This document shows, one piece after another, positions 3,960 through 50,770 of a stretch of 64,000 bases of DNA. This DNA is from an uncultured Coriobacteriia bacterium (GTDB taxonomy: Bacteria; Actinomycetota; Coriobacteriia; Anaerosomatales; PALSA-660), in assembly GCA_963726435.1 (NCBI GenBank), contig CAVSCJ010000004.1:209214-273213 (forward strand). Direction: 5' to 3'. Position numbers and translations under genes: made by a program. Position 1 is the first letter of the stretch. The number at the start of each line of letters is the position of its first letter. The notes beneath the pieces are model-generated. The model was not told where the DNA came from and searched no databases. It saw only the letters and a program-made list of their open reading frames with translations.

Positions 3960-4013
3960 GGTGTCCTCCTTACGAGCGGACCGCGCTCGATGGTAGCACC
4001 CCCTGGCACTCCC

Positions 4014-4073
4014 TTGACGCCACCCGGCGCCGGAGTTAGTGTATGGCATGTGCATCACTTAGTAGACACTAAG
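4014..4073 (+). promoter_or_regulatory. feoA promoter candidate with nested palindromic operator
   Basis: AT-rich island in a GC-rich background. TTGACG (4014-4019), 17 nt spacer, TAGTGT (4037-4042). Perfect inverted repeat CTTAGT-AGAC-ACTAAG at 4058-4073. Outer repeat TTAGTGT (4036-4042) / ACACTAA (4066-4072). Confidence 0.45.
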
Positions 4074-4102
4074 GCCGTACCCCCAGGCATGGAAGGACCG
4101 CG

Positions 4103-4399
4103 ATGACCGATAGCACGGCACGCGCGGAGCCGATCACCGCGAGCACGACGCCGGACCCCTGCGCGTCGTGCACACTGGCCGACGCCCGCGCCGGCCAGCA
4201 GTTCGTCGTGACGTGCGTCGGGGATCCGGGCGCGCGCATCACCGCGCTGCGGTTCGGAATGGCCGAAGGCGCCTGCGTCCACTGCACCGCCCGGATCCCC
4301 GCGGGCCCGATCGTGCTGCGCAGCGGGAGGCAGGAGATCGCGGTCGGACGCGAGTTGGCCAAGATGATCGACGTCCGCAGGCTGCCGGCGGCGAAGTAG
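4103..4399 (+). CDS. feoA: FeoA-domain protein
   Basis: 98-aa ORF with an SH3-like FeoA pattern (FVVTCVG...ALRFGMAEGACV...GPIVLRSGRQEIAVGRELA), 4 nt upstream of feoB. Confidence 0.85.
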   Translation: MTDSTARAEPITASTTPDPCASCTLADARAGQQFVVTCVGDPGARITALRFGMAEGACVHCTARIPAGPIVLRSGRQEIAVGRELAKMIDVRRLPAAK

Positions 4400-22561: not shown

Positions 22562-22563
22562 TC

Positions 22564-23170
22564 ATGCTGAAGCGGTCCGTCGCAGCGCTCTTCCTGATCG
22601 CGGCTCTTCTGACTCTGCGCGCAGCCGGCCTTGGCAGCGGAGGCGCCCATCCCGAAGAACGACCCGTCGAGCGCCCAACTCGTCGAGCGGCAGAACGTTC
22701 CCGGCGACCCGGCGAAGGGTCTCTACTACAACGGCAAGACTGTGACCTTCGCGGGCGAGGCGATAGGTGAGGTCATGGTCAGGGGCGACTACGCCTGGAT
22801 CCATCTGAACGATGACGCGTACATGGACGTCAACGTCGAGGAAGGCGCCAAGCTCGGCGGCTACAACTCCGGCATGGCCGTGTGGATCCCCTCATCGCTG
22901 ACCGTGCCGATCGACACCTACGGCGACTACAAGCACGAGGGCTCGATCGTGCAGGTGTCGGGGACGTTCAACGCGGCGTGCAAGGAGCACGGCGGCGACA
23001 TGGACATCCACGCGACGACCCTCAGCGTGATCCGCGCGGGGCACGTGGTCGCGGATCCGATCGCGCCTTGGAAGGCCTCTCTGGCGGCTGCTCTGGTCGC
23101 GCTTGCGGCAGTGCTGTTCTGGATCGAGCGCCGCACGCGGAATCGCATCACGCCCCACCGCGGGGTATAG
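22564..23170 (+). pseudogene. exported protein with C-terminal TM anchor; signal peptide and mature part lie in different frames
   Basis: ATG 22564 encodes MLKRSVAALFLIAALLTLRAAG in frame 1. The globular part (AAEAPIPKNDPSS...GYNSGMAVWIP...) runs in frame 2 from about 22631. A one-base shift near 22625-22631 is implied. Confidence 0.5.
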
Positions 23171-30598: not shown

Positions 30599-31258
30599 TC
30601 ACTGCGACCCGCGGGGGGTAGGCTCGAATGAACCGATCGCTTCCAGCTCCGAGGCCTTCCCTTCCCAGCCCATAAGGCGGATAACGGCGTCGGCCATGGC
30701 CTCGTCGGGCTGGTCTCCGATGACCACGGAGGTGACGAGAGAGCCGACGAACAGCGACAGGAACGCTCGCGCGCGCGTCTCGCGCGATGCGGGGTCGGAG
30801 TCCACTCCGTAGGCATCGTCGAGCCGCTCGACGGCCTGGAGGAGGTGCTCCCGGATGGGCGTCATGACCTGGGCGCGGATCTCCACCAGCACCGCCGGAT
30901 CGTGCGCGGCGGCGGTGAGCAGCGTGCGCAGGACGGGGCTGAACACACCGATCGCACCGCGACGATCCGCGAGCGCCGCCGCGATCTGCTCCCGCAGGGA
31001 CTCGGGGCGGATGGAATCGAGGATGCCGAAGGCCTCCTCGCGGATGCGGGACGCGACCACTCGCACGAGAGACAGGAACAGCTCCTCCTTGCCGGCGAAG
31101 TGCCGGTAGAGCGCCGGCTCGGTCACGCCGACCACCGCGGCCACGTCACGCATCGAGCCCGCGCGGTACCCCTTCTCCGTGAAGACCTCGAGTGCCGCGG
31201 CGAGGATCTCGCCTCGCCGCCCCGGCTCCCAGCTCGCGATCAGGCCGGCTTCCTTCAT
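30599..31258 (-). CDS. TetR-family transcriptional regulator
   Basis: Trimmed to ATG 31258 (ATGA overlap with the upstream ATPase stop). HTH region RAGSMRDVAAVVGVTEPALYRHFAGKEELF. Confidence 0.88.
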   Translation of the reverse strand: MKEAGLIASWEPGRRGEILAAALEVFTEKGYRAGSMRDVAAVVGVTEPALYRHFAGKEELFLSLVRVVASRIREEAFGILDSIRPESLREQIAAALADRRGAIGVFSPVLRTLLTAAAHDPAVLVEIRAQVMTPIREHLLQAVERLDDAYGVDSDPASRETRARAFLSLFVGSLVTSVVIGDQPDEAMADAVIRLMGWEGKASELEAIGSFEPTPRGSQ

Positions 31259-32214
31259 CGCTCCGCCCCCCGCCTCTCCCGGCCGACCAGGTGCACGAAG
31301 ACGTCCTCGATCGTCGGCTCGACCTGCTCGCAGCGGGAGACCGCAAAGCCGCCGCTGCGCAGCTCGTCGCCGACCGAGCATGGGTCGGTCCGGTCTCCGG
31401 CGTTGACGTGCAGCATCGCCCCGGAGAGGTACGCCTCGACGATGTCATCACGTTCGCCGAGCCAGGCGAGAGCGCCCTCGACGTCGCCGACCTCGACCTC
31501 GAGGATCTGGTCGGTCATGTGCTCCGCGCGGATCTGCTGGGGCGAGCCGATCGCGATCAGGCGTCCGTCGTAGATGAACGCGAGCCGGTTGCAGTGCGTC
31601 GCCTCGTCCATGTAGTGCGTCGTGACGAACAGCGTCACGCCGCCCTCCGCGAGCTGGTAGAGCAGCTCCCAGAACTGCCGCCGCGCAGACGGGTCCACAC
31701 CGGAGGTCGGCTCGTCCAGGAACAGCAGCTCGGGCTCGTGGATCGTCGCGCACCCGAGGGCCAGCCGCTGCTTCCAGCCGACAGAGAGGTTCGCGGTCAG
31801 CTCGCGCTCGCGCCCCACGAGGTCCGCCATCTCGAGCACGTACCGGCGGCGCTCCGCGTACCGCTCGCCCTCGATGCCGTAGACGCCGGCGTAGAAGCGC
31901 AGGTTCTCGTCGACGGTCATGTCCTAGAACAGGGCGAACTTCTGAGACATGTAGCCGATGGAGCGGCGCACCGACTCCGGGTCGGCGACGACGTCGTGCC
32001 CAAGCACTGTCGCCCCGCCGGATGTCGGCGCGATCGTCCCGCAAAGCATGCGGATCGTGGTCGTCTTGCCCGATCCGTTCGGGCCGAGGAAGCCGAAGAT
32101 CTCTCCGCGCGGCACGTCGAAGGAGATCGCGTCCACCGCCGTGAAGTCGCCGAAGCGCTTCGTGAGGTCGCGGACCTCGATCGCGCTCTGCCGCGTGAGG
32201 GTGTCCTCAGCCAT
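31255..32214 (-). pseudogene. ABC transporter ATP-binding protein interrupted by an in-frame TAG
   Basis: Walker A (GPNGSGKTT) lies in ORF 31924..32595. The signature LSVGWKQRL and Walker B LLFLDEPTSG lie in ORF 31255..31920. Both are in the same frame, separated only by TAG at 31924-31926 (..[22 protein letters not shown]..). Confidence 0.8.
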
Positions 32215-33332
32215 CAGTCCGCCAGTCTCTTGCGGAACCTGGCGAGAGCCGCGAAGAACACGACTGCCGAGAAGACCGCCATCGCCACCAGCTGGGGCCA
32301 CAGGGCGTCCAGCCCCGCGCTCTTCATCCAGTTGGACCGAAGCACCACGATCACGTATCGCAACGGTACCAGGTACGTGACGGGCACGATCGCGGCCGGC
32401 ATCGACTCGATCGGGAAGATGAAGCCGGAGAGCACCATCGTCGGTATGAGGATGAACATCGTCCCCTGCTGCGCCTGCTGCCGGGTGCGCGAGATCGTGG
32501 AGATGAAGAGTCCTTGCCCGAGCGCGGTGAACATGAACAGCAACAGCCCGAGACCGATGATGAGCACGTTGCCTGAGAACGGCACGCCGAACCACCAGCT
32601 GCCCACGAACATCACCAGCCCGGCCTGCGCGAAGGAGATCAGGACGTAGGGCGTGACCTTGCCGATCAGGTACTCGCCCCGGGTGATCGGCGTGACGAAC
32701 ATCTGCTCGAGCGTGCCCTTCTCACGTTCCTTGACTACCGCCTGGCTCATCACCGCGCTCATCGAAAGCATCATGATCATCGCGGCCAGGCCCGGGACCA
32801 TCGCGTCGACCGCGCGCAGCGACGGATTGAAGAGCACCCGGACCCTGGCGTCTATCCCGGGAGCTCCCGAGACCCCGAGAGCGGCCACGCGCTTCTGGTT
32901 GAAGGCCCCGACGATCTGAGCCGCGTAGCCGGACGCCACCGAGGCGGTCTTGCTGTCCGAGCCGTCGACCACCACCTCGACGGGGACAGTGCGCCCGCTC
33001 GTCACGTCGGCCTGCATGCCCGCCGGCAGCAGCAGCGCGGCCTGGATCTCGCCCCGGTCGAGCATCGGCTGGATCTCGCCCTCGCTCGCCGGTTCCGCCA
33101 CCACCACGAAGTAGCCGCTGGAGGTGAACGCCGAGACCACCTGGCGCGACATGGCCGTGCGGTCCGCGTCCACGACCGCTGTGGGAATGTTGCGCACGTC
33201 GGCGCCCACGACATAGCCGAACATGACCAGCTGGAGCACCGGCATGACCAGCACAAGGCGCAGGAAGAGTGGATCGCGCCTGAACTGCACGAACTCCTTC
33301 CAGATCAGAAGGCCTATGCGCTTCAGACTCAT
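32214..33332 (-). CDS. ABC-2 type transporter permease (YbhS/YbhR-like)
   Basis: Trimmed to ATG 33332 (MSLKRIGLLIWKEFVQFRRDP). Large extracytoplasmic loop followed by 5 TM segments. Confidence 0.88.
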   Translation of the reverse strand: MSLKRIGLLIWKEFVQFRRDPLFLRLVLVMPVLQLVMFGYVVGADVRNIPTAVVDADRTAMSRQVVSAFTSSGYFVVVAEPASEGEIQPMLDRGEIQAALLLPAGMQADVTSGRTVPVEVVVDGSDSKTASVASGYAAQIVGAFNQKRVAALGVSGAPGIDARVRVLFNPSLRAVDAMVPGLAAMIMMLSMSAVMSQAVVKEREKGTLEQMFVTPITRGEYLIGKVTPYVLISFAQAGLVMFVGSWWFGVPFSGNVLIIGLGLLLFMFTALGQGLFISTISRTRQQAQQGTMFILIPTMVLSGFIFPIESMPAAIVPVTYLVPLRYVIVVLRSNWMKSAGLDALWPQLVAMAVFSAVVFFAALARFRKRLAD

Positions 33333-33358: not shown

Positions 33359-34499
33359 CTACTCGGCCCTCCTCGACCACATGAGGGAGGCGATCGTGAG
33401 GCCGGCGACCGCGTAGACCGCGAGCGCCGTGACCTCGGGCCACAGCAGCGTCAGGTCGGCGCCCTTGAGGAAGACGGCCCGCGCGACCACGACCATGTAG
33501 CGCCCCGGGAAGGCGTAGCTGACCCACTGCAGGACGACCGGGATCGAGTTCAGCGGGAACGCGAAGCCCGAGAGCATGAAGCCGGGTAGGAACGCGACCA
33601 TCAGCCCGAGGAAGTTGGCGGTCTCAAGCGATGGTGCGCGCGACGAGATGATGAGCCCGATCGCGAGGCAGCACATCACGAACAGGAACGCCGCGAGTGC
33701 GAGCGTGAGCACGCTGCCGCGCAGCGGCACCCCGAACACGAGCACTGCGACCAGGGTGATCACCACGACGTCGATCAGCCCGAGCGCCACCCACGGCGCC
33801 ACCTTGCCGATCATCAGCTCGCCGCGGCGGATCGGGGAGACCGCCAGCTGCTCGAAGGTGCCCTGGTCCTTCTCACGGACCAGCGAGACGGCGGTCTGCT
33901 GCACGGTGACGATCATGATGATCACGACCATCAACGCCGGGATGAGGAAGTCGGCGCTGCGGCGTTCCGGGTTGTACCACGTTCGCGACACGCGGAGACA
34001 GCTGTCCCACTGAGGCCGGGTCGAGGCCCCGCTGCTGTGCCCAGGTCACCGAGATCCCGCGTGACACGGATTGCGTCAGCGCGGTGGCGTACGCCTGCGC
34101 GAGCTGCGCGGAGTTCGGCTCGCTGCCGTCGACGAGAACCTGGACCGTGGGGGTCCGCGCAGCAGTCACGTCCCGCCCGAACCCGGGAGGGATGACGATC
34201 GCGACCCTCGCCGCCGAGCGGGCGATGAACGAGTCGATCTCCGCGTCGTTGTTCGCGTACGCCACGACGCGGAAGAAGCCCGACTGACCGAACTGCGAGA
34301 GCAGATCGCGGCTCTGAGCCGTCCGGTCCTGGTCCATCACGACCGTCGGCACGTTCTTCACGTCGAAGCAGATCGCGTAGCTGAACAGCAGCAGCTGGAT
34401 GACGGGCATCAGCAGGACGGAGACGAGGATCCGCCAGTCGCGCGAGATGTGGATGAACTCCTTGCGCGCGACGGCGACGATGCGGCGAAGTGCGCTCAC
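33359..34499 (-). pseudogene. ABC-2 type transporter permease with one frame change
   Basis: N-terminal half in ORF 33873..34499 (MSALRRIVAVARKEFIHISRDWR...). C-terminal TM half in ORF 33359..33991 (..SRTWYNPERRSADFLIPALM..). Junction near 33993-33999. Confidence 0.75.
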
Positions 34500-35504
34500 G
34501 AGGTCTCACGCTCCTCCGCGAGGAAGGCGAACGCTGCCTCCATGTCGGGGCGCGCCGCCGCGATCGACACGCCGGACGCGCCGGCGGCCTGAAGCTCCTG
34601 GGCCAGAGCGTCGGCGTCCGGTCCGTCCGGGAACGACGAGAACGCGCAGCGATTCGCCGTGCACCGATACGCTCCGTATTCCCGAGGTCTCGCGAAGGAC
34701 GCGCATCGCCGCGCGCTGGTCTGCCGCCGAGACCTCGTAGAGCGTGCCGGGCAGGCGGCCCTTGACCGCGGCCGGCGTGTCCACGACCTCGAGTCGGCCG
34801 TTGCGCATGAAGGCGACGCGGTTGCATCGCTCGGCCTCGTCCATGTAGGGCGTGGCGACGAAGACGGTGACTCCGCGCCGGTGCAGGTCGGAGATGATGC
34901 GCCAGAACTCGCGCCGCGACACCGGGTCGACGCCGGTGGTCGGCTCGTCGAGGAAGATCAGGTCGGGCTCGTGGATGAGCGTCGCCGCGAGCGCGAGCTT
35001 CTGCTTCATGCCGCCCGACAGGTTGCGCGCCTGGCGGTCGGTGAACCCTTCGAGCCCCGCGAACCTCAGCAACCGCTCGGCCCTGGCGGCCTTCTCAGCC
35101 CTCGGGACCCCGCGCAGCTCCGCGAAGAAGTCGAGGTTCTCCGCCACCGTCAGGTCGGGGTAGAGCGAGAAGTCCTGACTCATGTAGCCGATGCGCGATT
35201 TAACCGCCGCCGGGTCGCGGGTGACCGAGTGGCCGAATACCGTCGCGTCTCCCGAAGTCGGGCTCAGCACGGTCGCGAGCATCCTGATCAGCGTGGACTT
35301 GCCGGCGCCGTCGGGGCCGAGCAGGCCGAACACCTCGGCTCGTCCGACATCCAGAGTCACGCCGTCGACGGCGGTCACCTGCGACCCGCGGCCGCCGAAG
35401 ACCTTCACCAGGTCGCGCGCCGAGATGGCGGCCTCGCCGCCGGTCTCTTCCGCATGCCCGCGCGCGCTCGCGCGCGCACGGAGGTTCTCGAGGAGTGAGG
35501 CCAC
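34496..35504 (-). pseudogene. ABC transporter ATP-binding protein with a C-terminal frame change
   Basis: Walker A GPDGAGKST, signature LSGGMKQKL, Walker B LIFLDEPTTG. After ..ESLRVLVVP the ORF becomes Arg/Gly junk. Shifting one base near 34630 gives DGPDADALAQELQAAGASGVSIAAARPDMEAAFAFLAEERETS, ending in a GTGA overlap with the next gene. Confidence 0.8.
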
Positions 35505-38146: not shown

Positions 38147-39487
<1,341 letters not shown>

Positions 39488-39594: not shown

Positions 39595-40879
39595 ATGCGG
39601 ATTCTGGTCCTTGGCGGCGGCGGCCGCGAACACGCCATCGTCGACTCGCTGCTGAGATCGCACCACAAGCCCGATGTGCTCGTCGCGCCCGGCAACGGCG
39701 GGACCGCAGGCGTCGCGACCAACTTCGCCGACCTCAAGATCGACGACCCTGAAGCGGTCGCGCAGTTCTCCGCCGACCAGAAGGTCGACCTAGTGGTGAT
39801 CGGTCCCGAGGGCCCGCTCGTGGCCGGCGTCGCCGACGCCCTGCAAGCACGCGGGATCAGGGTGTTCGGGCCCGGGGCGCTTGCCGCCCGTCTCGAGGGC
39901 AGCAAGGCGTTCGCGAAGGGGGTGATGCGCCGTCACGGCATCCCCACCGGCGAATCTCGCGCCTTCGCGGACCGCAAGCTCGACCAGGCGGTCTTCTACT
40001 TGGAGAATGCCGAGTACCCGGTGGTCGTGAAGGCCGACGGGCTTGCGGCCGGCAAGGGCGTCGTCATAGCCGCGAACCCGGAGGAGGCCGAGGCGGCGGT
40101 CGCCAAGTGCTTCGACGGCGGGTTCGGCGAAGCCGGCGAGGTCGTCATCGTGGAGGAGTTCCTCAAGGGCCCCGAGTGCTCGCTGCTCGCATTCACCGAC
40201 GGCGTGTGTGTCGTTGCGATGGAGCCGGCGCGCGACCACAAGCGCGCATTCGACAACGACGAGGGCCCCAACACCGGAGGGATGGGCGTCTACTCTCCCG
40301 TGCCGTCGATCGACGAGCTCACCGTCGCCAAGATGGCCGACCTGCTGCAGCAGACCATCACCGGGCTGCTGAAGGAGGGCATCCGCTATCGCGGAGTGAT
40401 CTACGGCGGGTTCGTCCTCACCGAGTCGGGTCCCAAGGTGCTCGAGTACAACGCGCGCTTCGGCGACCCGGAGACGCAGGTGCTGCTCCCTAGGCTGACC
40501 AGTGACCTGGTGGACATCATGATGGCCGTCAGGCGACGGCACTCTGCCCGCCATGAAGCCAGAGTGGAGCAGCGATCAGGCCGTGTCGGTGGTGCTCGCA
40601 TCGGGCGGGTACCCGGGCGAGTACGAGACCGGGAAGGTCATCACCGGCGTGGACGAGGCCGAATCGATGCCAGGCGTGAAGGTGTTCCACGCGGGCACCG
40701 CGATCCGCAAGGACGGGGTGCTGGTCACCTCCGGCGGCCGCGTGCTCGATGTGACCGCGCTCGCCCCCACGTTGCGCGAGGCCAGAGCGCTGGCGTACCA
40801 GGCGGTCTCCAAGATCTCCTTCGAGGGGATGTTCTACCGGAGCGACATCGCCGCGAACGTCTTCGGCTCGGAGGTCTAG
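39595..40879 (+). pseudogene. purD: phosphoribosylamine-glycine ligase with one +1 frame change
   Basis: N-terminal 312 codons in the frame of ORF 39595. The C-terminus (..GDGTLPAMKPEWSSDQAVSVVLASGGYPG...) is in ORF 40553..40879. An extra base at about 40531 makes the track fuse purD to the next gene as a false 883-aa ORF. Confidence 0.85.
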
Positions 40880-42246
40880 TGCTCGCCGAACGTCTGCTGA
40901 CGCCCGTCATCCGCACGCTCAACTCGCGCTATCTCGCACTAGGGCATGCGGATCTCGCCCGGCTCCCGGGCCCTCTGCCCGGTCGCGAGTACCTGCTCTA
41001 CGCGCACGTGCCCTTCTGCCAGCGCCTCTGCCCGTACTGCTCGTTCAACCGATTCCCGTTCTCTGAAGCCCGCGCCGTCCCGTACTTCGACCAGCTGCGC
41101 GAAGAGATGCGCATGGTGGCCGACCTCGGCTACGACTTCGCTTCCATGTATGTGGGCGGAGGAACGCCCACGATAATCCTCGACGAGCTCGCGCGTACGA
41201 TCGATCTGGCGCGAGAGCTGTTCTCCATCAAGGAGGTCTCCTCCGAGACGAACCCCAACCACCTGATCCCGGAGTACGTGGAGGTGCTCGCGCCGCGCGT
41301 CCAGCGCCTCAGCGTCGGCGTCCAGAGCTTCGACGACGGTCTTCTGAAGCAGATGGAGAGGTACGACAAGTACGGCTCCGGCGCCGAGATCCTCGAACGC
41401 ATCCAGGCGACCGCCGGCGCATTCCATTCGATGAACGTGGACATGATCTTCAACTTCCCATCGCAGACCGAGGCGATGCTCCGCCACGACGTGGAGATGC
41501 TGGAGCAGTCGACCTGCAACCAGACGACCTTCTACCCGCTGATGGCGTCGCCGGCAGTCAACCGCGAGCTCGCCCGCACGGTCGGGCCGGTCGACTACAA
41601 GCGCGAGGCACAGTTCTACGAGATCCTTTCGGGACTGCTGTCGGACGCCTTCGAGAACGGCAGCGCTTGGACGTTCTCGCGCAAGGCAGGCGGGATGATC
41701 GACGAGTACATCGTCGACTACGAGGAGTACGTCGGGATCGGCTCCGGGGCGTTCTCGTACCTCGACGGCACACTCTACGTGAACACGTTCTCGCTGCGGG
41801 AGTACGGCGACCAGCTCGGCGCGGGCCGCATGGGCGTCGCGGGGGCGAAGTCGTTCGCAGCGCACGAGCGGATGCGGTACCGGTTCCTGATGGAGCTGTT
41901 CGGTCTCCGGCTCGACAAACGCAAGTTCGAGCGCGACTTCGGGGTGTCGATCGACCGAGGACTGCGCCCGGAGATGGGATTCATGCGCGCGGCGGGGGCC
42001 TTCGACCAGGACGACGACGAGGCGCTGACGCTGACGGCCCGCGGCCGCTACCTCATGGTCGCGATGATGCGCGAGTTCTTCATCGGCGTGAACAACGTCA
42101 GGGACCAGGCCCGCTCGGCCCTGAAGCCCGACGAGCGGGAATTGCTCTTCGGCGAAGGCGAGGGCGCCGCTTGTGACGAGTTCCACGGATCGGTCGCCGA
42201 GGCCGTAGCCGAATCGGAGGCGGCCGGGGATGCGATGCCGAGATGA
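40879..42246 (+). CDS. radical SAM protein, HemN/HemW/HutW-like coproporphyrinogen-III-oxidase family
   Basis: GTG 40879 overlaps the purD stop. LLYAHVPFCQRLCPYCSFNRF CX3CX2C motif and GGGTPT glycine-rich SAM motif. Confidence 0.8.
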   Translation: MLAERLLTPVIRTLNSRYLALGHADLARLPGPLPGREYLLYAHVPFCQRLCPYCSFNRFPFSEARAVPYFDQLREEMRMVADLGYDFASMYVGGGTPTIILDELARTIDLARELFSIKEVSSETNPNHLIPEYVEVLAPRVQRLSVGVQSFDDGLLKQMERYDKYGSGAEILERIQATAGAFHSMNVDMIFNFPSQTEAMLRHDVEMLEQSTCNQTTFYPLMASPAVNRELARTVGPVDYKREAQFYEILSGLLSDAFENGSAWTFSRKAGGMIDEYIVDYEEYVGIGSGAFSYLDGTLYVNTFSLREYGDQLGAGRMGVAGAKSFAAHERMRYRFLMELFGLRLDKRKFERDFGVSIDRGLRPEMGFMRAAGAFDQDDDEALTLTARGRYLMVAMMREFFIGVNNVRDQARSALKPDERELLFGEGEGAACDEFHGSVAEAVAESEAAGDAMPR

Positions 42247-42929
42247 GGCGGACCCCGCGAGAGTGGCTCGCTCTGGGCGTCGCGCTCGTTGTCGCGGGTG
42301 CCATAGTCGCCTTCATGGTCGCGATCTTCGGCTCCGTGCTCGGCCTGCCGCTCCCAGTGACCGTTGCGCTCGCGGTCGCCGCGGTCGCCCTCCTCGCCTA
42401 CCCTCTTGTGCGGGACCCGGCGCCGCCGGCCTCAGCCGATGCGGCCGCCGCAACGGAAAGGACCGTCATGAGTGACGCACCCCTGGTCGGCATCGTCATG
42501 GGATCGCAGTCGGACATGGCAGTGATGGAGGAGTGCGTGCGCACTCTGGAGGGCATGGGGATCGCACATGAGGTGTTGGTCGCATCGGCCCACCGTCAGC
42601 CCGCGAAGGTGCGCGATTGGGCGGCCGGTCTGGCCGATCGCGGCGTGAAGGTCGTCATAGCCGCCGCGGGCAAGGCCGCCCATCTGGCCGGCGTGGTGGC
42701 CGCAGACACGCCCCTCCCCGTGATCGCCGTGCCGATGAAGACTTCGGACCTCGGCGGACTGGACTCGCTGCTGTCGATGGTGCAGATGCCCTCGGGCGTT
42801 CCCGTTGCGTGCGTCGCGATCAATGGTGCGAAGAACGCGGCGATCCTCGCGGCACAGATCCTGGGAACCTCGATACCCGAGTGCCGCGCGGCCGTCGAGA
42901 AGCTGAAGTCCGACATGGCCGGGGCCTGA
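42243..42929 (+). CDS. purE: 5-(carboxyamino)imidazole ribonucleotide mutase, possibly with an N-terminal two-helix membrane extension
   Basis: PurE core from MSDAPLVGIVMGSQSDM (ATG 42468). The ORF is open from ATG 42243 (ATGA overlap with the upstream stop), adding 75 hydrophobic codons. The true start is unresolved. Confidence 0.88.
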   Translation: MRRTPREWLALGVALVVAGAIVAFMVAIFGSVLGLPLPVTVALAVAAVALLAYPLVRDPAPPASADAAAATERTVMSDAPLVGIVMGSQSDMAVMEECVRTLEGMGIAHEVLVASAHRQPAKVRDWAAGLADRGVKVVIAAAGKAAHLAGVVAADTPLPVIAVPMKTSDLGGLDSLLSMVQMPSGVPVACVAINGAKNAAILAAQILGTSIPECRAAVEKLKSDMAGA

Positions 42930-42959
42930 GGACCGTTGGGAGCCGGGATCGGACGGGTC

Positions 42960-43586
42960 ATGCGCATCCTCGTACTCGGGGCGTCGGGTGCCACCGGGCA
43001 GCAGGTCGTCGAGCAGGCGCTCAGCCACGGCCTCGAGGTCGTGGCGTTCGTCCGCGACGCCGGCCGCCTGCCGTTCACTCACGAGCGTCTGACCGTCATA
43101 GCGGGTGACGTCGCCGACTCGGTGGCGCTGCAGACGGCTGTCGCAGGGTGCGATGCCGTGATCTCGACGCTCGGTTCGCGCGGCCAGCGGCCCGTGACCG
43201 TCTACTCCGACGGCATCGCCAACACGATCCGTGCCATGGCAGCCCGCGGCATCCGGCGGCTCGTGGTCGTCTCCGCCGCGGGAGCCGGTGCGGACTCGCC
43301 CGACGTTCCGCTCCGGGTGCGCATGATGCGAAAGATGCCGGGTCTGCGTCCCGTCTACGAGGACATGGAGCGCATGGAAGGCGACATCATGCTCTCCGAA
43401 CTCGACTGGACCATCGTGCGCGCGCATGCGCTCCGCGACGGTCCGCTCACCGGCCTCTACCGGGTGGTCGAGGGCAACTCGGCGCCGAAGGGGGCGCACA
43501 TCTCGCGTGCTGACCTCGCCGCTCTGCTGCTCAAGTGCGCGCAAGGCGACCTGTACGTGAAGAAGGCCGTGGCGGTCGCGTACTGA
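42960..43586 (+). CDS. NAD(P)H-binding (atypical SDR / NmrA-like) protein
   Basis: MRILVLGASGATGQQVV Rossmann N-terminus. Confidence 0.78.
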   Translation: MRILVLGASGATGQQVVEQALSHGLEVVAFVRDAGRLPFTHERLTVIAGDVADSVALQTAVAGCDAVISTLGSRGQRPVTVYSDGIANTIRAMAARGIRRLVVVSAAGAGADSPDVPLRVRMMRKMPGLRPVYEDMERMEGDIMLSELDWTIVRAHALRDGPLTGLYRVVEGNSAPKGAHISRADLAALLLKCAQGDLYVKKAVAVAY

Positions 43587-43600
43587 CGGCCCGTTCGGGT

Positions 43601-44209
43601 TCAGCCTCGCGCGGTGCGACTGGGCAGGGCGGCGGTCTCGATCATCACTCGCATGAGCCCCTTCAGCGCGTGGATCCCCGCTTCGCATTCCTCCGCCGAC
43701 AGCGGCGCGATGCTCGCCCTGCAATGGTAGGCGAGGCACTGGATCGGGCGATCATGCGCGGGCAGTGCGCACCCCTGGGGGGTGCAGTTCGGGCAGTATT
43801 CGGGTGGCGCTGCCTGCGTCGCGGCGGGGTCGCGCAACGGCGGGTAGTCCGTGTGCTTCTCGCGTATCTTCGAGCGCAGGCTGCGTGGCGCCGGGTTCGG
43901 CTGCGAGGGGTCCTGGAGCACCCGGTCGACGATGGAGTCTCGGAAGCGCTCCTCCGTGCAGCAGCCGCCCCGGCACTCGGCGCAGGCCGCCCCGTGCGTC
44001 GCCTGTAGCGCGGCCATCTCGCTCTGAAAGGCGCGCCGGCGCAGGTCGAGCTCCCGCAGGCGCTCGGCGTGTTCGCTCCAGTCGGTGCCACCGCGGCGGG
44101 CTCGATAGGCGGCCGAGTAGCTCGCGTGGAAGTCGACCGCGCGGAACACGGGTCGCGCGAGCGCAAGGAACGTTGCCGCCTGCAGTGCCGAGCGTCGGCG
44201 AGCCGCCAC
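43601..44209 (-). CDS. YkgJ-like cysteine-cluster protein
   Basis: 202-aa ORF. CAECRGGCC cluster plus CPNC...C...C...C motifs. High GC3. Confidence 0.5.
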   Translation of the reverse strand: MAARRRSALQAATFLALARPVFRAVDFHASYSAAYRARRGGTDWSEHAERLRELDLRRRAFQSEMAALQATHGAACAECRGGCCTEERFRDSIVDRVLQDPSQPNPAPRSLRSKIREKHTDYPPLRDPAATQAAPPEYCPNCTPQGCALPAHDRPIQCLAYHCRASIAPLSAEECEAGIHALKGLMRVMIETAALPSRTARG

Positions 44210-44312
44210 GTGTCCTCCTTCGTTGGCGCGCGGTCTGTGGGACCGCGTCGCCGGGGGGTAGGATAGCGTACGGGGGCAGTTCCGGGACTCGTGACCGCGG
44301 CCGGGAGGTCAG

Positions 44313-45041
44313 ATGGCGATCGTAGAGACGGAAGCGCTGCGCAAGACCTACGGCGAGGGCGAGACGCAGGTCTGCGCGCTCGATGGAGTGGACCTGACGA
44401 TGCAGCCCGGAGAGTTCGTCGCTGTGATGGGTCCGAGCGGCTGCGGCAAGTCCACCCTGCTCAACATGGTGGGCGGGCTCGACCGGCCCACCTCCGGGCG
44501 CGTCAGCGTCGACGGGGCGGACCTCACCACACTCGACGACGACAAGCTCACCGAGTTGCGCCGCCGACGCATCGGCTTCGTGTTCCAGTTCTTCAACCTG
44601 ATCCCGGTCCTCGACGCGGTCGAGAACGCCGCGCTCCCGCTCACGCTCGACGGCGACCCCCACGCGAAGGAAACGGCGCGCGCGTGGCTCGAGAAGGTCG
44701 GATTGGGGGACCGCCTGTCCAGCCGTCCCGACCAGCTTTCCGGCGGGCAGCAGCAGCGCGTGACCGTCGCCCGGGCGCTCTCCGCCGAACCCGCGCTCGT
44801 CCTGGCCGACGAGCCGACCGGCAACCTCGACTCGAAGTCGGCCACCGATATCGCGACGCTGCTCAAGCAAGTCGCCACCGAGTGGGGCCGCTCGGTTCTG
44901 ATGGTCACGCACGACCCGAGGATCGCTGCGTACGCGGCACGTCTCGTGCTGATGAAGGACGGCAAGATCGTCGACGACCTGAGACTCGACGGCACCGAGC
45001 ATGCCGCGCGAGATGCGATGGAGCGAGCCGGGCTGCTGTGA
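44313..45041 (+). CDS. ABC transporter ATP-binding protein (MacB/LolD-like)
   Basis: GPSGCGKST Walker A, LSGGQQQRV signature, VLADEPTGNLD Walker B. Confidence 0.93.
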   Translation: MAIVETEALRKTYGEGETQVCALDGVDLTMQPGEFVAVMGPSGCGKSTLLNMVGGLDRPTSGRVSVDGADLTTLDDDKLTELRRRRIGFVFQFFNLIPVLDAVENAALPLTLDGDPHAKETARAWLEKVGLGDRLSSRPDQLSGGQQQRVTVARALSAEPALVLADEPTGNLDSKSATDIATLLKQVATEWGRSVLMVTHDPRIAAYAARLVLMKDGKIVDDLRLDGTEHAARDAMERAGLL

Positions 45042-47570
45042 ACGTCCAACTGACTCTCGCGTGGCGGTACCTGCGCGGCCGCGGAGGGCGCACTGTGCTC
45101 ACCTCGCTGGCGGTCGTGCTCGGCGTCATGCTCATCTTCGGACTCAACGGCCTCACGCCCACGCTTCTGAAGGCCTTCTCCCGCAACCTGGTCTCGACGG
45201 CAGGCAAGGTGGACGCCACGGTGACCAGCCCGTTCGGCGCTTCCTTCTCCCTCGACGTGGCGGCCAAGGTCGCGCGCGTGCCGGGAGTGGAACAGGTCAC
45301 CCCGATGCTCCAGCGGACCGTGCCCCTTCCGCCACGTGTCGGCGTGCCCGCGGCCGACCAGGTCGCGCAGGCCTACGTCGTCGGCGTGGACCCGGGCAGC
45401 ATCCTGCGCGTGCGCGACCTTCCGATCGGAAGCGGGCGCTCGCTGGCGATCGGGGATGGCGACGTCACAGTCCTGGCGTCCGACTTGGCGAAGAGCCTGG
45501 GAGTGAGGCTGGGCGACACGATATCCGTGCCTTCGTCGGTGGGAACGACGAAGTTCACAGTGGTCGGCCTGCTCTCCTCGGCGACAGTCCCGGGTCAGGA
45601 GCAGCTCTTCATCCCGCTCACCGCGGCACAGGCGCTGTTCGCGGAGGGCCAGAACATCAACGAGGTGGACGCCTCGTTCGTCCTCGGCGTCGACCGGGCC
45701 GCCACCGAGGCGGCCGTACAGCGGTCCGTGGGCAAGGACCTGCAGGTCGGCGGGCTGTCCAGCAACAGCTCGCTCATCGCCTCCCTGCAGGTGGCCCAGT
45801 ACTCCTTCAACCTGTTCGGCATCTTCGCGCTGGCCACCGGCGCGTTCATCATCCTGAACAGCTTCCGCACGGTCGTATCCGAGCGTCGTCGCGACATCGG
45901 GATGCTGCGGGCGATCGGCGCCAAGCGCGGCACGATCGTCGGGATGTTCCTTGCGGAGTCGCTCATCCAGGGGATCCTGGGTACCGCCCTCGGCATCCTG
46001 GCGGGGTGGGGCATGGCCTCCGCCGGCCTCGCCGCGCTCGGCCCGATCTTCGAGAGGTACTTCCACACCGCTCCGGGAGCGCCCATCTTCGAGGTCGGCA
46101 CGTGGATCTTCGCGATCACCCTGGGCGTGGGGGTCACGATCCTGGCGGCGCTGATACCGGCCATGGCCGCCGGCCGAGTGACGCCGATGGAGGCGATGCG
46201 CCCGCAGCTGGGCGAGGTCTACGAGCGGCGGGTCGGACGTCGCGCCTGGATCGGCGCGGGCATCGTCGGGTTGTCCCTGCTCATGCTCGCGACCCGCGAC
46301 GCCAGCCATGGTCGGTCTGGGGTCGATCGTATTCCTAGTCGGGATCGCACTGGTGGCACCAGCTGTCGTGAGCCCGCTCTCCGACGTGTTCGGCGGTCTC
46401 ATCGGCGTGGCGTTCGCGCGTGAGGGCGGAATAGCCCGGAGCAACCTTCAGCGCAACCCGGGTCGCAGCGCCATCACCGTCACGGCTGTCATGCTCGGGC
46501 TGGCCACGATCATCGCGATGGCCGGCGTGATCACCTCCATATTCGCCGGCTTCACCAGCTACATCGACAAGGCGATGAGCGCCGATTTCATGTTCCTGCC
46601 GCAATCGATCGTGCTCTCCTCCGGCAACGTCGCGGCGGGCCCGCGTCTGACGGAAGAGGTGCGGCACGCCCCGGGCATGGGCACCGTGACCACGCTCCGT
46701 TTCGGCCAGGGCAAGATAGACGGCGCCTCGGTTCAGGCCCTCGGGATCGACCCGACCACATACGCCAAAGTCGCCTCCTTCGAGTGGACGACGGGCTCCT
46801 CCGAGAGCGCTATCGCTCAGCTCGGGCAGGGTCGCTGGCTCATCGCGAACGGAATCTTCGCTTCCTCGCACGGGCTGGTGGTGGGACAGGCGGTCACGTA
46901 CGACACGCCGAGCGGGCCGAAGACGTACCACGTGGCCGGCATCGGAAACGACTACCTCAACGCCAAGCTCTCCACAACCTACGTGTCGCAGGACAACTTG
47001 GCGCGCGACTTCAACTCCACGAACGACCTGCTGATCATGGGGAACCTGGCCCCCGGCGCCGACAAGGCGCTCACGAAGGCCAGTCTCGAAAGGATCGTCG
47101 CCGACTACCCGGCGTTCAAGCTCTACGATTCCGCCACGTTCAAGACCGAGCAGCTGAGCGTGTTCGACCAGACGATGGGGATCTTCTATGTTCTCGGCGC
47201 CGCCCTGGCGCTGCCGTCGCTCCTCGCACTCGTGAACACGCTCGCGATAAGCGTGCTCGCGCGCACGCGCGAGATAGGGATGCTGCGCGCGGTCGGGTCC
47301 ACGCGACGCCAGGTGCGCAGGATGGTGATGGCGGAGTCGCTGCTGCTCTCGGCCATCGGTACCGCTTTCGGGATACTCGCGGGCATATGGCTCGGGTACG
47401 CGCTCGTCGACGCCATGCGGACCATCGGCTGGCCGATGCCCTACTTCTTCCCGTGGGCGGGCATCCTGCTGACGATCGCCGTCGGCCTGGGCTTCGGCGT
47501 GCTGGCCGCCTACATCCCGGCCCGCTCCGCTGCCCGGCTGAATGTGGTGGACGCGCTGCACTTCGAGTAG
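45038..47570 (+). pseudogene. FtsX/MacB-type ABC permease with two FtsX domains and one frame change
   Basis: GTG 45038 (GTGA overlap). First half in the frame of ORF 44291, second half in ORF 46308..47570. Junction ..GLSLLMLATRDAS | MVGLGSIVFLVGIALVAP.. inside a TM helix near 46300-46308. Confidence 0.8.
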
Positions 47571-47676
47571 GTGCGGCGCCGCCGTCCCGAACCGCTAGAA
47601 TGGCAGTCCGGCGAGCGCGTATGCACGCAATCGCCGCTATCATGCAGTGAATCCGCGATCGCCCCGGGAGAAGGCC

Positions 47677-48900
47677 ATGTCCCAGCGCTACTACGAAGAC
47701 GTCGCCGTCGAGGGCCACCTCATCGACTCGCAGATCGTCTCCAAGATGATGGACGACATAATCGAGCTCGGCGGCGAGTTCGAGACTCTGAGCTTCGAAG
47801 TCGGGCGGACGAACGACGACCCCTCGCGAGCGGTGCTCCGCGTTATCGCTTCCGACCAGGCGGCTCTGGACAACATCGTCACCGCGGTGCTCGAGCATGG
47901 AGCGGTGCCGATCGACCTTTCCGATGCCGAGTGGGCCGCCGCACCGGCGGCCGGCGTCTTCCCGGAGGGCTTCTACTCGACCACCAACATGGAGAGCTGG
48001 GTCCGCATCCGCGGGAGCTGGGTCCGGGTCCCCGGAGCCGAGATGGACCTCGGCATCCGTGTCGACCCGGACGCGGGCGCGGTGGAACTGGTCACGATCA
48101 ACGACGTTCGCTCGGGCGATCTCCTGGTCACCGGGCACAGGGGGGTGCGCGTCATCCCCGTGCAGCGCCCGCGCGAGAAGGGCGCGTTCGAGTTCATGAA
48201 CTCCGCCGTCTCCAGCGAGAAGCCCAAGGCTCAGATCGTGGGCGAGGTGGCCAAGCTGCTGCGCAGGACGAAGCAGGAGGGGAGGCCCGCGATCGCGGTC
48301 GTCGGTCCGGCCGTGGTCCATACGGGCGCCGCTCCGCACCTGGCCCGCCTATTCGAGATGGGCTACCTCACGGTGATGTTCGGCGGCAACGCGGTCGCCA
48401 CCCACGACGTCGAGGCGGCGCTCTACGGCACGTCGCTTGGAGTGCGGCTCGACACTGGTGCGCTCGTGCCGGGCGGGCACGAGCATCATCTGCGAGCGAT
48501 CAACGCGATCCGGGCCGCCGGTGGCTTCCAGAAGGCGGTCGCGTCCGGCGTGCTGACGAACGGGATCATGTACACCCTGGTCAAGACTGGCGCCCCGTAC
48601 GTGCTCGCCGGGTCGATCCGCGACGACGGGCCGATGCCCGGGGTCATCACCGATGCGCTCGAGGCCCAAGCCGCCATGCGGTCGTTCTGCCGCGACGCCG
48701 GCGCCTGCCTGATGTTCTCGACGATGCTGCATTCGATCGCCACGGGCAACATGCTACCGGCCTCCACTACCACGGTCTGCGTCGACATCAACCCGGCCGT
48801 GGTGACGAAGCTGGCCGACCGGGGGTCGTTCCAGACGGTCGGTGTGGTCACCGACGTCGGGCTCTTCCTCGAGATGCTCGCGGACGATCTGGCGAAGTAG
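47677..48900 (+). CDS. TIGR00300 / LOR-SDH-domain family protein (ornithine cyclodeaminase-like)
   Basis: ATG 47677. EGHLIDSQIVSKMMDDIIELGGEFETLSFEVGRTNDDPS N-terminus matches my memory of the archaeal/cyanobacterial family. Confidence 0.75.
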   Translation: MSQRYYEDVAVEGHLIDSQIVSKMMDDIIELGGEFETLSFEVGRTNDDPSRAVLRVIASDQAALDNIVTAVLEHGAVPIDLSDAEWAAAPAAGVFPEGFYSTTNMESWVRIRGSWVRVPGAEMDLGIRVDPDAGAVELVTINDVRSGDLLVTGHRGVRVIPVQRPREKGAFEFMNSAVSSEKPKAQIVGEVAKLLRRTKQEGRPAIAVVGPAVVHTGAAPHLARLFEMGYLTVMFGGNAVATHDVEAALYGTSLGVRLDTGALVPGGHEHHLRAINAIRAAGGFQKAVASGVLTNGIMYTLVKTGAPYVLAGSIRDDGPMPGVITDALEAQAAMRSFCRDAGACLMFSTMLHSIATGNMLPASTTTVCVDINPAVVTKLADRGSFQTVGVVTDVGLFLEMLADDLAK

Positions 48901-48983
48901 AGTCCCCTTCGGGCCACGCCGCGCCTGGCTCCGAATGGAGCGGGCCCGCCAGTGGGTATGACTGTTGCTGGAGGCGAGCGCTC

Positions 48984-49727
48984 ATGAGTCCCGAAGTCCC
49001 CACACCCGCACCCAAGCTGTCCATGCCGCAGCTGGAAGTCCAGCAGCCTGACGAGTTCGCCACGGCTACATTCGCCATGGGTTGATTCTGGGGGCCCGAC
49101 GCCCGGTTCGGGCGCCTCGAGGGTGTCTTGCGGACGCGTGTCGGCTACTGTGGCGGGTCGACGGATTCTCCCACATACGAGCGCATCGGAGACCACAGCG
49201 AGACCGTCGAGATGGACTACGACCCGCGGGTCATCTCCTACGACGACCTGCTGGCCGAGTTCCTCACCGGGCACGACGCGCGGACGCCGTCGTACTCGAC
49301 CCAGTACCGCTCGGCCATCTTCTATCGCGACGGCTCGGAGCGGGCCGCCGCCGAGCGTGCTCTGCAGGCGGCGCGGGTCTCTCGCGGGATGGTTCACACG
49401 TCCATCGAGCCGATCCTTCGCTTCTGGATCGCGGAGGACTACCACCAGAAGTACCGGCTGCGCGGGCACGGCAGGATAGCGTCAGAGCTTCGGGCACTGA
49501 TGCCCGACGAACGCGCGTTCATAGACGCGACCTCGGCAGCGCGGCTCAACGCCTGGTTCGACGGGTGGGGCGAGGCCGCGCAGATCGAGCGGGAGCTGCC
49601 GCTCACGGGGCTGAGCCGGTCCTCCCAGGACGAGGTGCTGGCGTACGCGGGCCGAAGAGAGCATGTCCGACAGGTCCAAGCAGAACAGGAGTCCGCGCAT
49701 GCCCTACGTGGTCGAACATACAGATGA
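48984..49727 (+). CDS. msrA: peptide-methionine (S)-S-oxide reductase MsrA, candidate selenoprotein (UGA at codon 34)
   Basis: ATG 48984 (GGAGG upstream) reads ...EFATATFAMG-TGA(49083-49085)-FWGPDARFGRLEGVLRTRVGYCGGS...DYDP..ISY..LL. The TGA aligns with the catalytic Cys of the GCFWG motif. The frame is continuous with track ORF 49128..49727. Confidence 0.7.
49095..49123 (+). promoter_or_regulatory. bacterial SECIS-like hairpin downstream of the msrA UGA
   Basis: CCCGA-CGCCCG-GUU-CGGGCG-CC-UCGAGGG. Six-bp G/C upper stem, with loop G and U at +24/+25 from the U of UGA. Lower stem has a bulged A. Confidence 0.5.
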
Positions 49728-50094
49728 GGAGTGGCGGCGCCTGCTCTCCCCGGACGCCTTCCGCATCCTGCGCCTGGCCGGCACGGAACCGGCGTTCAAC
49801 AACGAGTTCTGGAACAGTCACGCTGACGGGATCTACCTGTGCGGCGGTTGCGATCGTCCCCTTTTCGACTCCGCCGACAAGTACGACTCGGGCACGGGCT
49901 GGCCGTCGTTCACGCGTCCGATCGACGACAAGGCGATCGAGACCGGCCCCGACACGCAGCTCGGCACGGAGCGCACCGAGGTGCGCTGCGCGCGCTGCGG
50001 CGGCCATCTGGGCCACGTCTTCGACGACGGGCCGGCGCCTGACGGCAAGCGCTACTGCATGAACTCGGGCGCGCTGACCTTCCAGCCGCGCTAG
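49699..50094 (+). CDS. msrB: peptide-methionine (R)-S-oxide reductase MsrB
   Basis: ATG 49699 (AGGAG upstream; alternative start ATG 49663). CGGC and CARCGGHLGHVF zinc motifs and the catalytic RYCMNS motif. Confidence 0.92.
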   Translation: MPYVVEHTDEEWRRLLSPDAFRILRLAGTEPAFNNEFWNSHADGIYLCGGCDRPLFDSADKYDSGTGWPSFTRPIDDKAIETGPDTQLGTERTEVRCARCGGHLGHVFDDGPAPDGKRYCMNSGALTFQPR

Positions 50095-50095
50095 G

Positions 50096-50770
50096 GTGCG
50101 GCCGCTCTTGGAGCTCGCCTACGGACCGGAGTCACCCGAGGTCGTCGTGCTCGCGGCCGACCCGGTCATGGCGGCCGTCACTCGCGCGATAGGCGACGTG
50201 CGCGTTGGGGTGCAGCCCGATCGCTTCGTTTCCCTTGCCAGCTCGATCGTCGGCCAGCAACTCTCCGGCGCCGCCGCGTCGACGATCTGGCGGCGCTTCG
50301 CCGCACTCGGTCCCGTCGAGCCCGCTGCGGTGCTCGGGCTGGACGATGCGGCACTGCGCGCCTGCGGGCTTTCGGGTCAGAAGGTGCGCTATCTGCGCGA
50401 CCTGGCCGAGCGAGTCCACACCGGAGACCTCGACCTCGCTTCGATGGATGTCCTGGACGATGACGCGGTGGTCGCGGAGGTCACGAGGGTCAAGGGCGTG
50501 GGCCGCTGGACCGCCGAGATGTTCCTGCTGTTCTCGCTCGCCCGTCCAGACGTGCTTGCTCTCGACGACGGCGGTCTGCTGCGAGCGGCCGGTTGGGCGC
50601 TGGAGCTCGCGCGCCCTGCGACAGGCCCGGAGCTCGCCGCGGCCGGCGAGGCGTGGCGACCCTACCGCAGCGTCGCGTCGCTCTACCTGTGGGCCTGCCT
50701 GGACAGGCGCCTGGTTCCGCGCACCGGCGCACCCGGCGGACTGACGCCGCGAGAGGCGGACGCGGGCTGA
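50096..50770 (+). CDS. DNA-3-methyladenine glycosylase II family protein (HhH-GPD, AlkA-like)
   Basis: VGQQLSGAAASTIW, HhH motif VKGVGRWTAEMFLLF, then D in ALDDGGL. Confidence 0.82.
   Translation: MRPLLELAYGPESPEVVVLAADPVMAAVTRAIGDVRVGVQPDRFVSLASSIVGQQLSGAAASTIWRRFAALGPVEPAAVLGLDDAALRACGLSGQKVRYLRDLAERVHTGDLDLASMDVLDDDAVVAEVTRVKGVGRWTAEMFLLFSLARPDVLALDDGGLLRAAGWALELARPATGPELAAAGEAWRPYRSVASLYLWACLDRRLVPRTGAPGGLTPREADAG

Follow-up and report, generated by a model that had tools for sequence, protein, structure and literature searches.

A probable selenoprotein MsrA encoded by an uncultured Coriobacteriia bacterium

The msrA gene and its internal TGA codon

A stretch of 64,000 nucleotides from an uncultured Coriobacteriia bacterium (contig CAVSCJ010000004.1; the whole stretch is referred to here as the window) carries an msrA gene that is interrupted by a TGA codon at the position of its catalytic cysteine (Cys). 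The full-length coding sequence occupies 48984..49727 on the + strand and comprises 247 codons; its frame runs from ATG 48984 to an ordinary TGA stop at 49725-49727, and translation reveals a single in-frame interruption, the TGA at 49083-49085. Around this codon the translation reads ...TATFAMG-TGA-FWGPDARFG..., and the frame as a whole passes from MSPEV...TATFAMG through the TGA into FWGPDARFGRLEGVLRTRVGYCGG. The interrupting codon (49083..49085, + strand), codon 34 of the gene, is a putative selenocysteine (Sec; U in the one-letter code) codon, which would place Sec at the catalytic position of a GUFWG motif, where Cys-type homologues have GCFWG.

The protein has the catalytic domain expected of a GUFWG-type selenoprotein MsrA. 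With the TGA read as Cys, the Pfam family PMSR (PF01625) matches residues 27-160 with E = 2e-37, and the best matches among the structures of the PDB (4LWJ, 4LWK, 4LWL, 4LWM, 4U66 and 7C13) are all MsrA, with a phmmer E-value of 3e-44 and query residues 25-221 aligned to residues 7-204 of the chain. These structures are those of the 209-residue MsrA of Clostridium (Alkaliphilus) oremlandii OhILAs, CoMsrA, whose residue 16 is Sec in the native protein and confers about 20-fold more activity than the Cys mutant has (PMC4479559). Codon 34 of the window gene aligns with Sec16 of this proven selenoprotein, to which the window protein is orthologous. An earlier note on this DNA, made from the sequence alone, had claimed an in-frame TGA at the catalytic Cys in a frame that stays open to 49727, and both the translation and the alignment with Sec16 bear this out.

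Several features indicate that the part of the gene upstream of the TGA is translated. A Shine-Dalgarno-like GGAGG (48970..48974, + strand), found by direct reading of the sequence, lies 9 nucleotides (nt) 5' of ATG 48984 and supports a start upstream of the TGA and not at TTG 49128. Over the 14 codons 5' of the TGA, the window differs from the relative L083 by five synonymous and no non-synonymous changes, and from L092 by five synonymous changes and one non-synonymous change; this preponderance of synonymous changes argues that the upstream stretch and the sequence beyond the TGA are translated in one frame. The in-frame UGA at the catalytic position is therefore flanked by conserved frame on both sides. 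TGA is also the ordinary stop of many Pfam-confirmed genes in the window (those for FeoB, purE, an NAD-binding protein, an ABC ATPase and an HhH-GPD protein, and msrA itself); the genetic code is thus the standard one, and UGA has not been reassigned genome-wide as in genetic code 4 or 25.

Automated annotation loses the active site of this gene. The open reading frame (ORF) list splits msrA and offers TTG 49128 as a start, as the earlier note had remarked in pointing out that a restart there removes the active site; the public gene call for the window msrA (P0001) begins at an internal Met ('MDYDP') and is 171 aa long. In near relatives, gene callers report two pieces: a separate 33-aa ORF, equivalent to the segment Met1-Gly33 of MsrA in the window, and after it a PMSR gene that has lost its 5' part. 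Database proteins retrieved with the complete MsrA sequence show the same picture: the best matches (with 100, 82, 78, 76 and 68% identity, among others) have lengths of 171-200 aa and mostly start with '(V/I)RTRVGY', just past the active-site motif, and other database homologues are full-length proteins with GCFWG.

Conservation of the codon and of a downstream hairpin

A scan of 185,579 species-representative genomes was used to collect the 80 best msrA loci, each from a distinct GTDB species. The aligned codon is TGA in 74 of the 80 and TGC or TGT in the other six, and the TGA loci span at least 10 phyla. Six of these loci belong to Actinomycetota, with the labels Coriobacteriia, Coriobacteriales, Gaiellales, Actinomycetes and Actinomycetota; the others come from Dehalococcoidia/Anaerolineales (Chloroflexota), Planctomycetota, Desulfobacterota, Synergistota, Nitrospirota, Acidobacteriota, Spirochaetaceae and Firmicutes. 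Named genomes with the TGA form include Desulforamulus aeronauticus DSM 10349 (Firmicutes) and the complete genome of Desulfosarcina alkanivorans. Over all aligned loci the totals are 85 TGA and 9 TGC/TGT, so that the codon is conserved over about 85 loci and Sec-type and Cys-type forms are paired at the same position. The collected set includes one GUFWH and one GUFWS variant.

The nearest relatives share the codon. The closest are three JGI contigs (L092-L094), which have 94% DNA identity to positions 42476-50770 of the window and carry TGA. The TGA form is likewise found in L083, L084, L085-L087 and L001, whose MsrA proteins are 82%, 78%, 68% and 68% identical to that of the window, respectively; L001, a Coriobacteriia metagenome-assembled genome (MAG) from palsa soil, is the nearest species-level MsrA locus. 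In all, TGA occupies the aligned codon in L083-L088 and L092-L095; the near relatives L001, L083-L087 and L092-L094 derive from independent JGI, ENA and NCBI assemblies. The JGI protein call for L088 (P0020) reads GWFWG at the catalytic site; its codon (L088 283-285) is TGA, apparently translated under a code that reads TGA as Trp, and Trp at the catalytic position was rejected as an artefact of that other genetic code.

Both Sec and Cys forms occur within the syntenic actinobacterial clade. The gene in L095 (protein P0019) has TGA and an intact hairpin (GGACGCCCGGUUCGGGUGUC). Its counterpart in L089 (P0005), whose protein is 79% identical to it, has TGC and a weakened hairpin in which GGG has become GGA and six of eight pairs remain (L089 1643-1693). 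A second relative, L091 (P0006), has TGC yet retains a perfect hairpin, with all eight pairs and an energy of -17.9 kcal/mol (L091 1451-1501). These two Cys-type MsrAs resemble the window in the order of the ArgZ-like gene, msrA and msrB and are 59% identical to the window protein; they differ from it in having TGC for TGA and, in L089, a degraded hairpin. The pattern suggests a recent exchange of Sec and Cys after which the SECIS (selenocysteine insertion sequence) element decays, leaving a fossil SECIS. Such an exchange fits the dynamics of Sec loss and Sec-to-Cys replacement, which are frequent in bacteria (PMC1794560).

The hairpin in the window follows the TGA directly. Its core (49098..49116, + strand) contains an upper stem formed by C49100-G49105 and C49109-G49114 around an apical loop of G49106, U49107 and U49108; below it, C49097-A49099 can pair with U49117-G49119 (CGA/UCG), in which case C49115-C49116 form a bulge. 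The local minimum free energy (MFE) fold of 49095-49120, with its 6-bp upper stem, GUU loop and CC bulge, has an energy of -12.4 kcal/mol, and the core alone -10.3 kcal/mol; this is the same structure that the earlier note had drawn at 49095-49123. The consensus for bacterial SECIS (bSECIS) elements sets the loop at 3-9 nt and the upper stem at 4-16 bp, places the loop 16-37 nt from the UGA and demands an MFE of -7.5 kcal/mol or lower; the first two positions of the loop have to include a G, as a rule with G or U after it and a flanking base pair (PMC13188914). The window hairpin agrees with this model in all four respects: its loop is GUU, its upper stem has 6 bp and closes the G-U with the pair G49105-C49109, the loop begins 20 nt after the UGA, and its energy is -10.3 or -12.4 kcal/mol.

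When numbering starts with the U of UGA, the G and U of the loop become G24/U25. The SECIS loop G-U of Escherichia coli fdhF is G23/U24. The two elements are alike in that each is a hairpin in the coding region that follows immediately on the UGA, presents G and then U in its apical loop and has dimensions in the consensus bSECIS range. They differ in that the window G-U lies one nt further out and that there is no evident bulged U corresponding to U17 of fdhF; the sequences are otherwise unrelated, that of the window being dictated by the MsrA codons D-(A/S)-(R/Q)-F-G. The geometry that the earlier note assigned to the apical G-U thus stands as to the spacing of 16-37 nt and is one nt off as a match to fdhF.

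The strongest indications that this hairpin matters come from comparison of relatives. Sixty-six TGA-type sequences could be aligned without gaps from the TGA onward (alignment A2) because the downstream peptide, FWGPD(A/S)(R/Q)FG, is conserved. In the common structure, columns 16-23 pair with columns 27-34 (49098-49105 with 49109-49116 in the window) around loop columns 24-26 (49106-49108). Paired cells make up 80.8% of the total; column shuffles give 74.4%, with none of 500 as high as the real alignment, and sliding the 3' partners gives no more than 61%. Covariation is evident as well: both sides have changed in 35 cells, as against 13.8 in shuffles, where 0 of 500 attain 35. Pair 19/31 is U-A in 33 sequences, G-C in 14, U-G in five and G-U in two; pair 18/32 is C-G in 37, U-G in six, A-U in four and U-A in four; and pair 23/27 is G-C in 36 and A-U in 11. 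These compensatory changes shift the encoded residues in step (Ser...Ser versus Ala...Arg, Ala or Leu).

Third-position entropy was computed for 79 unique TGA-type and 8 unique Cys-type sequences. Inside the hairpin of the TGA forms it falls to 0.17 bits at column 21 (C in 77 of 79), 0.0 bits at column 24 (G in 79 of 79), 0.71 bits at column 27 and 0.10 bits at column 30 (G in 78 of 79), as against 1.6-2.0 bits in the flanking columns 12, 15 and 33-51. The Cys forms vary at the synonymous sites of the hairpin, and the difference between Sec and Cys forms is significant at columns 21 (Fisher exact p = 3e-5) and 30 (p = 4e-7); on average 6.6 of the eight pairs form in Sec-type sequences and 4.0 of the eight in Cys-type sequences. 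This freezing of synonymous sites is the clearest signal for the hairpin and shows selection acting at the RNA level. The hairpin stretch is also unchanged between the window and the 94%-identical L092-L094, while flanking synonymous sites differ.

No Rfam family matches the hairpin at gathering thresholds. With the E-value relaxed up to 10, three chance matches appear (pRNA, a Pyrobaculum sRNA and a flavivirus xrRNA) and no bacterial SECIS, a result that is uninformative either way.

The earlier note's central proposal, a Sec-containing MsrA with a bacterial SECIS, gains support from the TGA in relatives, from covariation and from synonymous sites that are frozen in TGA forms only. It had named Cys codons and no hairpin in close relatives as an outcome that would speak against the idea; the opposite was found, in that close relatives carry TGA and keep the hairpin. 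The alignment of Sec-type and Cys-type homologues that it had proposed as a check, together with an analysis of hairpin covariation, shows an element conserved as a structure in the orthologues, with covariation present and synonymous constraint limited to the TGA forms.

The neighbourhood of msrA and the remainder of the window

The gene for an ArgZ-like arginine dihydrolase (47647-48900) lies upstream of msrA, and msrB (49699..50094, + strand) overlaps the msrA 3' end by 29 nt. MsrB has a SelR domain (Pfam SelR E = 3.5e-48) and is of the Cys type (RYCMN); its start was set at ATG 49699 because the corresponding gene calls in L092-L094, of 131 aa, begin there, and msrA and msrB are probably co-transcribed. 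The order ArgZ-like gene, msrA(TGA), msrB is kept in L084-L087 and L092-L095, and with the Cys form of msrA in L089. Downstream of msrA lie msrB and the genes for an HhH-GPD glycosylase and a rubrerythrin, a neighbourhood that fits the oxidative-damage defence typical of an anaerobe. In the near clade the msrA frame is about 25 codons longer (49640-49727) than in other relatives, with a tail ...EQESAHALRGRTYR that overlaps the start of msrB. This tail is conserved in P0002-P0004, which may be a simple constraint from the overlapping N-terminus of MsrB in the other frame.

The rest of the window is ordinary chromosome, with rpsF-ssb-rpsR-rplI-dnaB, purA (38189-39487), purD, purE, Trk, FeoB and efflux ABC systems. 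Its PurA shows 84-90% identity to proteins under the names 'MAG: ... Coriobacteriia bacterium' and 'Actinobacteria bacterium', and about 81% to those of 'Actinobacteria bacterium HGW-Actinobacteria-1' and '-6'. Several genes of the window are disrupted. An in-frame TAG (31924-31926, - strand) in the gene for an ABC-transporter ATPase separates the ORFs 31255-31923 and 31927-32721, with Pfam ABC_tran 2-70 matched upstream of it and 74-137 downstream, followed by the DrrA C-terminal domain; it is a plain nonsense codon or an assembly error, and has no selenoprotein context. An extra G at 46305, relative to L092, splits a MacB-like permease gene (45095-47570, + strand), with a possible restart at ATG 46308; the L092 counterpart is a single ORF of 824 aa with the domain order MacB_PCD-FtsX-MacB_PCD-FtsX, and the split is either an assembly indel or real. 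The genes for TrkH (21132-22770, + strand) and an ABC-2 membrane permease (33359-34505, - strand) are each represented by overlapping ORF fragments in different frames, which suggests indel errors in the assembly or pseudogenes. Positions 39595-42246 (+ strand) hold a single ORF of 884 aa that matches GARS_N and GARS_A (purD) and then Radical_SAM, with no match to GARS_C. In L085 and L086 two genes take its place, a purD of 427 aa that includes GARS_C and a radical-SAM gene of 459 aa, which overlap by 1 base; the window ORF is probably a fusion made by a frameshift.

A scan of the window for in-frame TGA between two stretches of high GC3 (G+C content at third codon positions) found no second selenoprotein gene, returning just frame-sharing adjacent genes and one TAG nonsense codon.

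Genes for Sec machinery were also sought around the collected loci. A tblastn search with E. coli SelA, SelB and SelD found one such gene near any of the 80 loci, a selD homologue in L013, a Desulfobacterales MAG (3120-4124, - strand; 343 aa aligned with E. coli SelD at 40.5% identity), at a distance of about 4 kb from the Sec-type msrA. ARAGORN found no tRNA-Sec in 60 loci. Its 92-nt 'tRNA-Gly(tcc)' in L035, an Acidobacteriota MAG (16061-16152), about 6 kb downstream of the Sec-type msrA, was considered as a tRNA-Sec or allo-tRNA, the latter having been reported in Acidobacteria, and was set aside as probably a false positive: with E-values up to 0.01 allowed, neither the tRNA nor the tRNA-Sec family of Rfam matches it, and the z-score of its fold is -0.45.

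Selenocysteine, its alternatives and the place of the window protein

We consider it very probable, from this comparative evidence, that the TGA within msrA is a translated Sec codon served by a functional SECIS. Ribosomes would initiate at ATG 48984; at UGA 49083-49085 a SelB-type elongation factor carrying Sec-tRNA(Sec) would bind the mRNA hairpin 15-33 nt downstream and deliver Sec in competition with release factor 2, and translation would then proceed to the ordinary stop TGA 49725-49727. The product, with its GUFWG site, would reduce Met-S-sulfoxide via a selenenic acid intermediate and would be made together with the Cys-type MsrB encoded just 3'. Selenium incorporation in the window MsrA is predicted, the C. 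oremlandii ortholog being the one for which it has been demonstrated (PMC4479559), and the reductant that presumably recycles the enzyme is likewise a matter of prediction.

Some of the observations weigh against this reading. Within the window, tblastn with E. coli SelA, SelB and SelD found no selA, selB or selD, and ARAGORN and Rfam found no tRNA-Sec, and these searches, like those of the loci, say nothing about the genome at large; since UGA, frame and hairpin are all under purifying selection, we infer that the genome carries selA, selB, selC and selD. The hairpin is not exceptional in energy: compared with shuffles at the same 68% G+C its z-score is -0.15, and folds of equal or greater stability arise in 81 of 200 shuffles. 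When RNAfold is given 60 nt, a competing register is preferred in the window sequence, and the fixed-register hairpin lies above -7.5 kcal/mol in 17 of 66 relatives; L005, the sole one of the 17 inspected, pairs one register over. Since the hairpin is no more stable than shuffles, its significance comes from comparison with relatives and not from energy, and thermodynamics alone was discarded as a criterion for coding sequence of 68% G+C. The disrupted genes described above (the TAG at 31924-31926 and the frameshifts) also make a defect at the TGA site conceivable in principle.

The alternative that survives best, itself improbable, is that the gene is a relic: the Sec machinery would have been lost and translation would stop at the UGA, leaving an inactive gene, a 33-aa peptide or a truncated protein that lacks the active site. 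The lack of sel genes and tRNA-Sec within the 64-kb window agrees with this, as do the Cys forms in the same syntenic clade (L089-L091) and the frequency with which bacteria lose the Sec trait and replace Sec by Cys (PMC1794560). A relic, however, would not be expected to keep its frame intact on both sides of the TGA with mainly synonymous changes upstream, nor a hairpin that is unchanged with respect to relatives 6% diverged in nucleotides and 18-32% in protein. There is no frameshift or extra stop in the 247 codons, despite such lesions elsewhere in the assembly, and the hairpin decay that has begun in the Cys-type L089 is absent from the window, where the hairpin is perfect.

A second alternative, for which we see very little room, is that the UGA is recoded to a residue other than Sec, either by a tRNA(Sec)-like tRNA(Cys) with a UCA anticodon, in which selC* and SelB* insert Cys, or by near-cognate read-through with Trp or Cys. 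Recoding by selC* tRNA(Cys) has been described in other anaerobes (PMC7609411), and nothing in the window tells which tRNA reads the UGA. A selC*-type system is, however, without report in Actinomycetota, and the orthologous C. oremlandii enzyme contains Sec. Moreover, a single step from TGA to TGY would suffice to encode Cys, as in L089-L091, and the retention of UGA and SECIS over wide divergence argues that Sec itself is of benefit. If true, this alternative would extend selC*-type recoding to Actinomycetota.

Least credible of all is that the TGA stems from a mistake in sequencing or assembly, or from a nonsense mutation of TGC/TGT peculiar to this strain, in what would be an ordinary Cys-MsrA or a fresh pseudogene: the other lesions of the window (the TAG at 31924-31926, the 1-nt insertion at 46305 and the fragmented TrkH and ABC-2 permease genes) lend it some colour, but the same TGA is present in the three 94%-identical JGI contigs, in relatives whose proteins are 82, 78 and 68% identical and in 74 of the 80 species-level loci, and is followed by a hairpin under RNA-level selection, so that the error would have to recur in each of these assemblies. 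The caution about assembly quality in the earlier note was sound as regards the frameshifts and the TAG, which the window does hold; it does not apply to the TGA at 49083-49085, which is common to independent assemblies.

With Sec as the preferred reading, the window msrA is almost certainly a further member of an already known selenoprotein family, and not an error or a new system. MsrA, with the motif GUFWG/H, is one of the selenoprotein families that a 2026 review of prokaryotic selenoproteomes counts as verified by experiment (PMC13188914), and a Sec-containing MsrA was recorded in Syntrophobacter fumaroxidans in a 2006 survey that also placed Actinobacteria among three phyla in which selenoprotein families abound (PMC1794560). 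Sec decoding has been documented in Actinobacteria since that survey (PMC1794560; PMC5322559). As MsrA is an established selenoprotein family and Sec decoding is known in the phylum, the window gene is an expected case. It shares with the surveyed family the GUFWG motif with UGA for the catalytic Cys, the existence of Cys-type homologues and a SECIS immediately downstream (PMC13188914, PMC1794560); nothing essential differs, and the taxon and the breadth of occurrence are the additions.

Comparison with CoMsrA is closer still. The window protein belongs to the same MsrA subfamily, including the C-terminal helical extension (STxAARxNG...) that is missing from E. coli-type MsrA, and the two share a UGA-encoded catalytic residue (Sec16 in CoMsrA, putatively Sec34 in the window) in the context FA(L/M)G-U-FWGPDA(Q/R)FG. 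They differ in host, a clostridium as against a high-G+C Coriobacteriia-like actinobacterium, and in that the window protein contains a single Cys, is extended by 24 residues at its N-terminus and ends in a longer C-terminal tail, whose coding sequence overlaps msrB. CoMsrA has no other Cys, is of the 1-Cys type and is recycled by glutaredoxin and not by thioredoxin (PMC4479559). The window protein departs from this 1-Cys type, defined by the lack of any Cys beyond the catalytic Sec or Cys, through Cys56 (codon 49149-49151, + strand), which is its sole Cys and stands right after the conserved Tyr of VGYxGG, in the motif VGY-C-GG. Cys56 is found in 13 of the 85 TGA forms, including the whole near clade (L001, L083-L087 and L092-L094) together with L002, L022 and L033; most Sec-MsrAs have Ala, Ser or Thr at this position, and CoMsrA has Ala. 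It is possible that Cys56 is a resolving residue that forms a selenylsulfide. If true, this milder variant, with an intramolecular selenylsulfide between Sec34 and Cys56, would make the protein a two-residue selenoprotein MsrA, mechanistically unlike the glutaredoxin-dependent CoMsrA.

Two expectations expressed in the earlier note need revision. It had called Sec-containing MsrA rare, which does not hold among uncultured anaerobes, and it had regarded one as unusual in an actinobacterium-like genome; six Actinomycetota MAGs and all of the sampled near relatives carry TGA, and Sec decoding in this phylum has been documented since 2006 (PMC1794560). With TGA in 74 of the 80 nearest species, it is the Sec form and not the Cys form that dominates this MsrA subfamily in uncultured anaerobes. 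There are consequences for annotation, since every public call examined in the clade (171-200 aa) loses the active site, the caller restarting after the UGA; the family-specific SECIS, GAC-(U/G)CC-C(G/A)G-UU(C/U)-GGG-(A/C)G(U/C)..., could serve to rescue mis-annotated genes. The close pair of Sec and Cys orthologs, 79% identical and one with a decaying SECIS, offers natural material for the study of Sec/Cys exchange. For the organism itself, a translated Sec codon in msrA would mark this Coriobacteriia-like lineage as a user of Sec, and hence of selenium.

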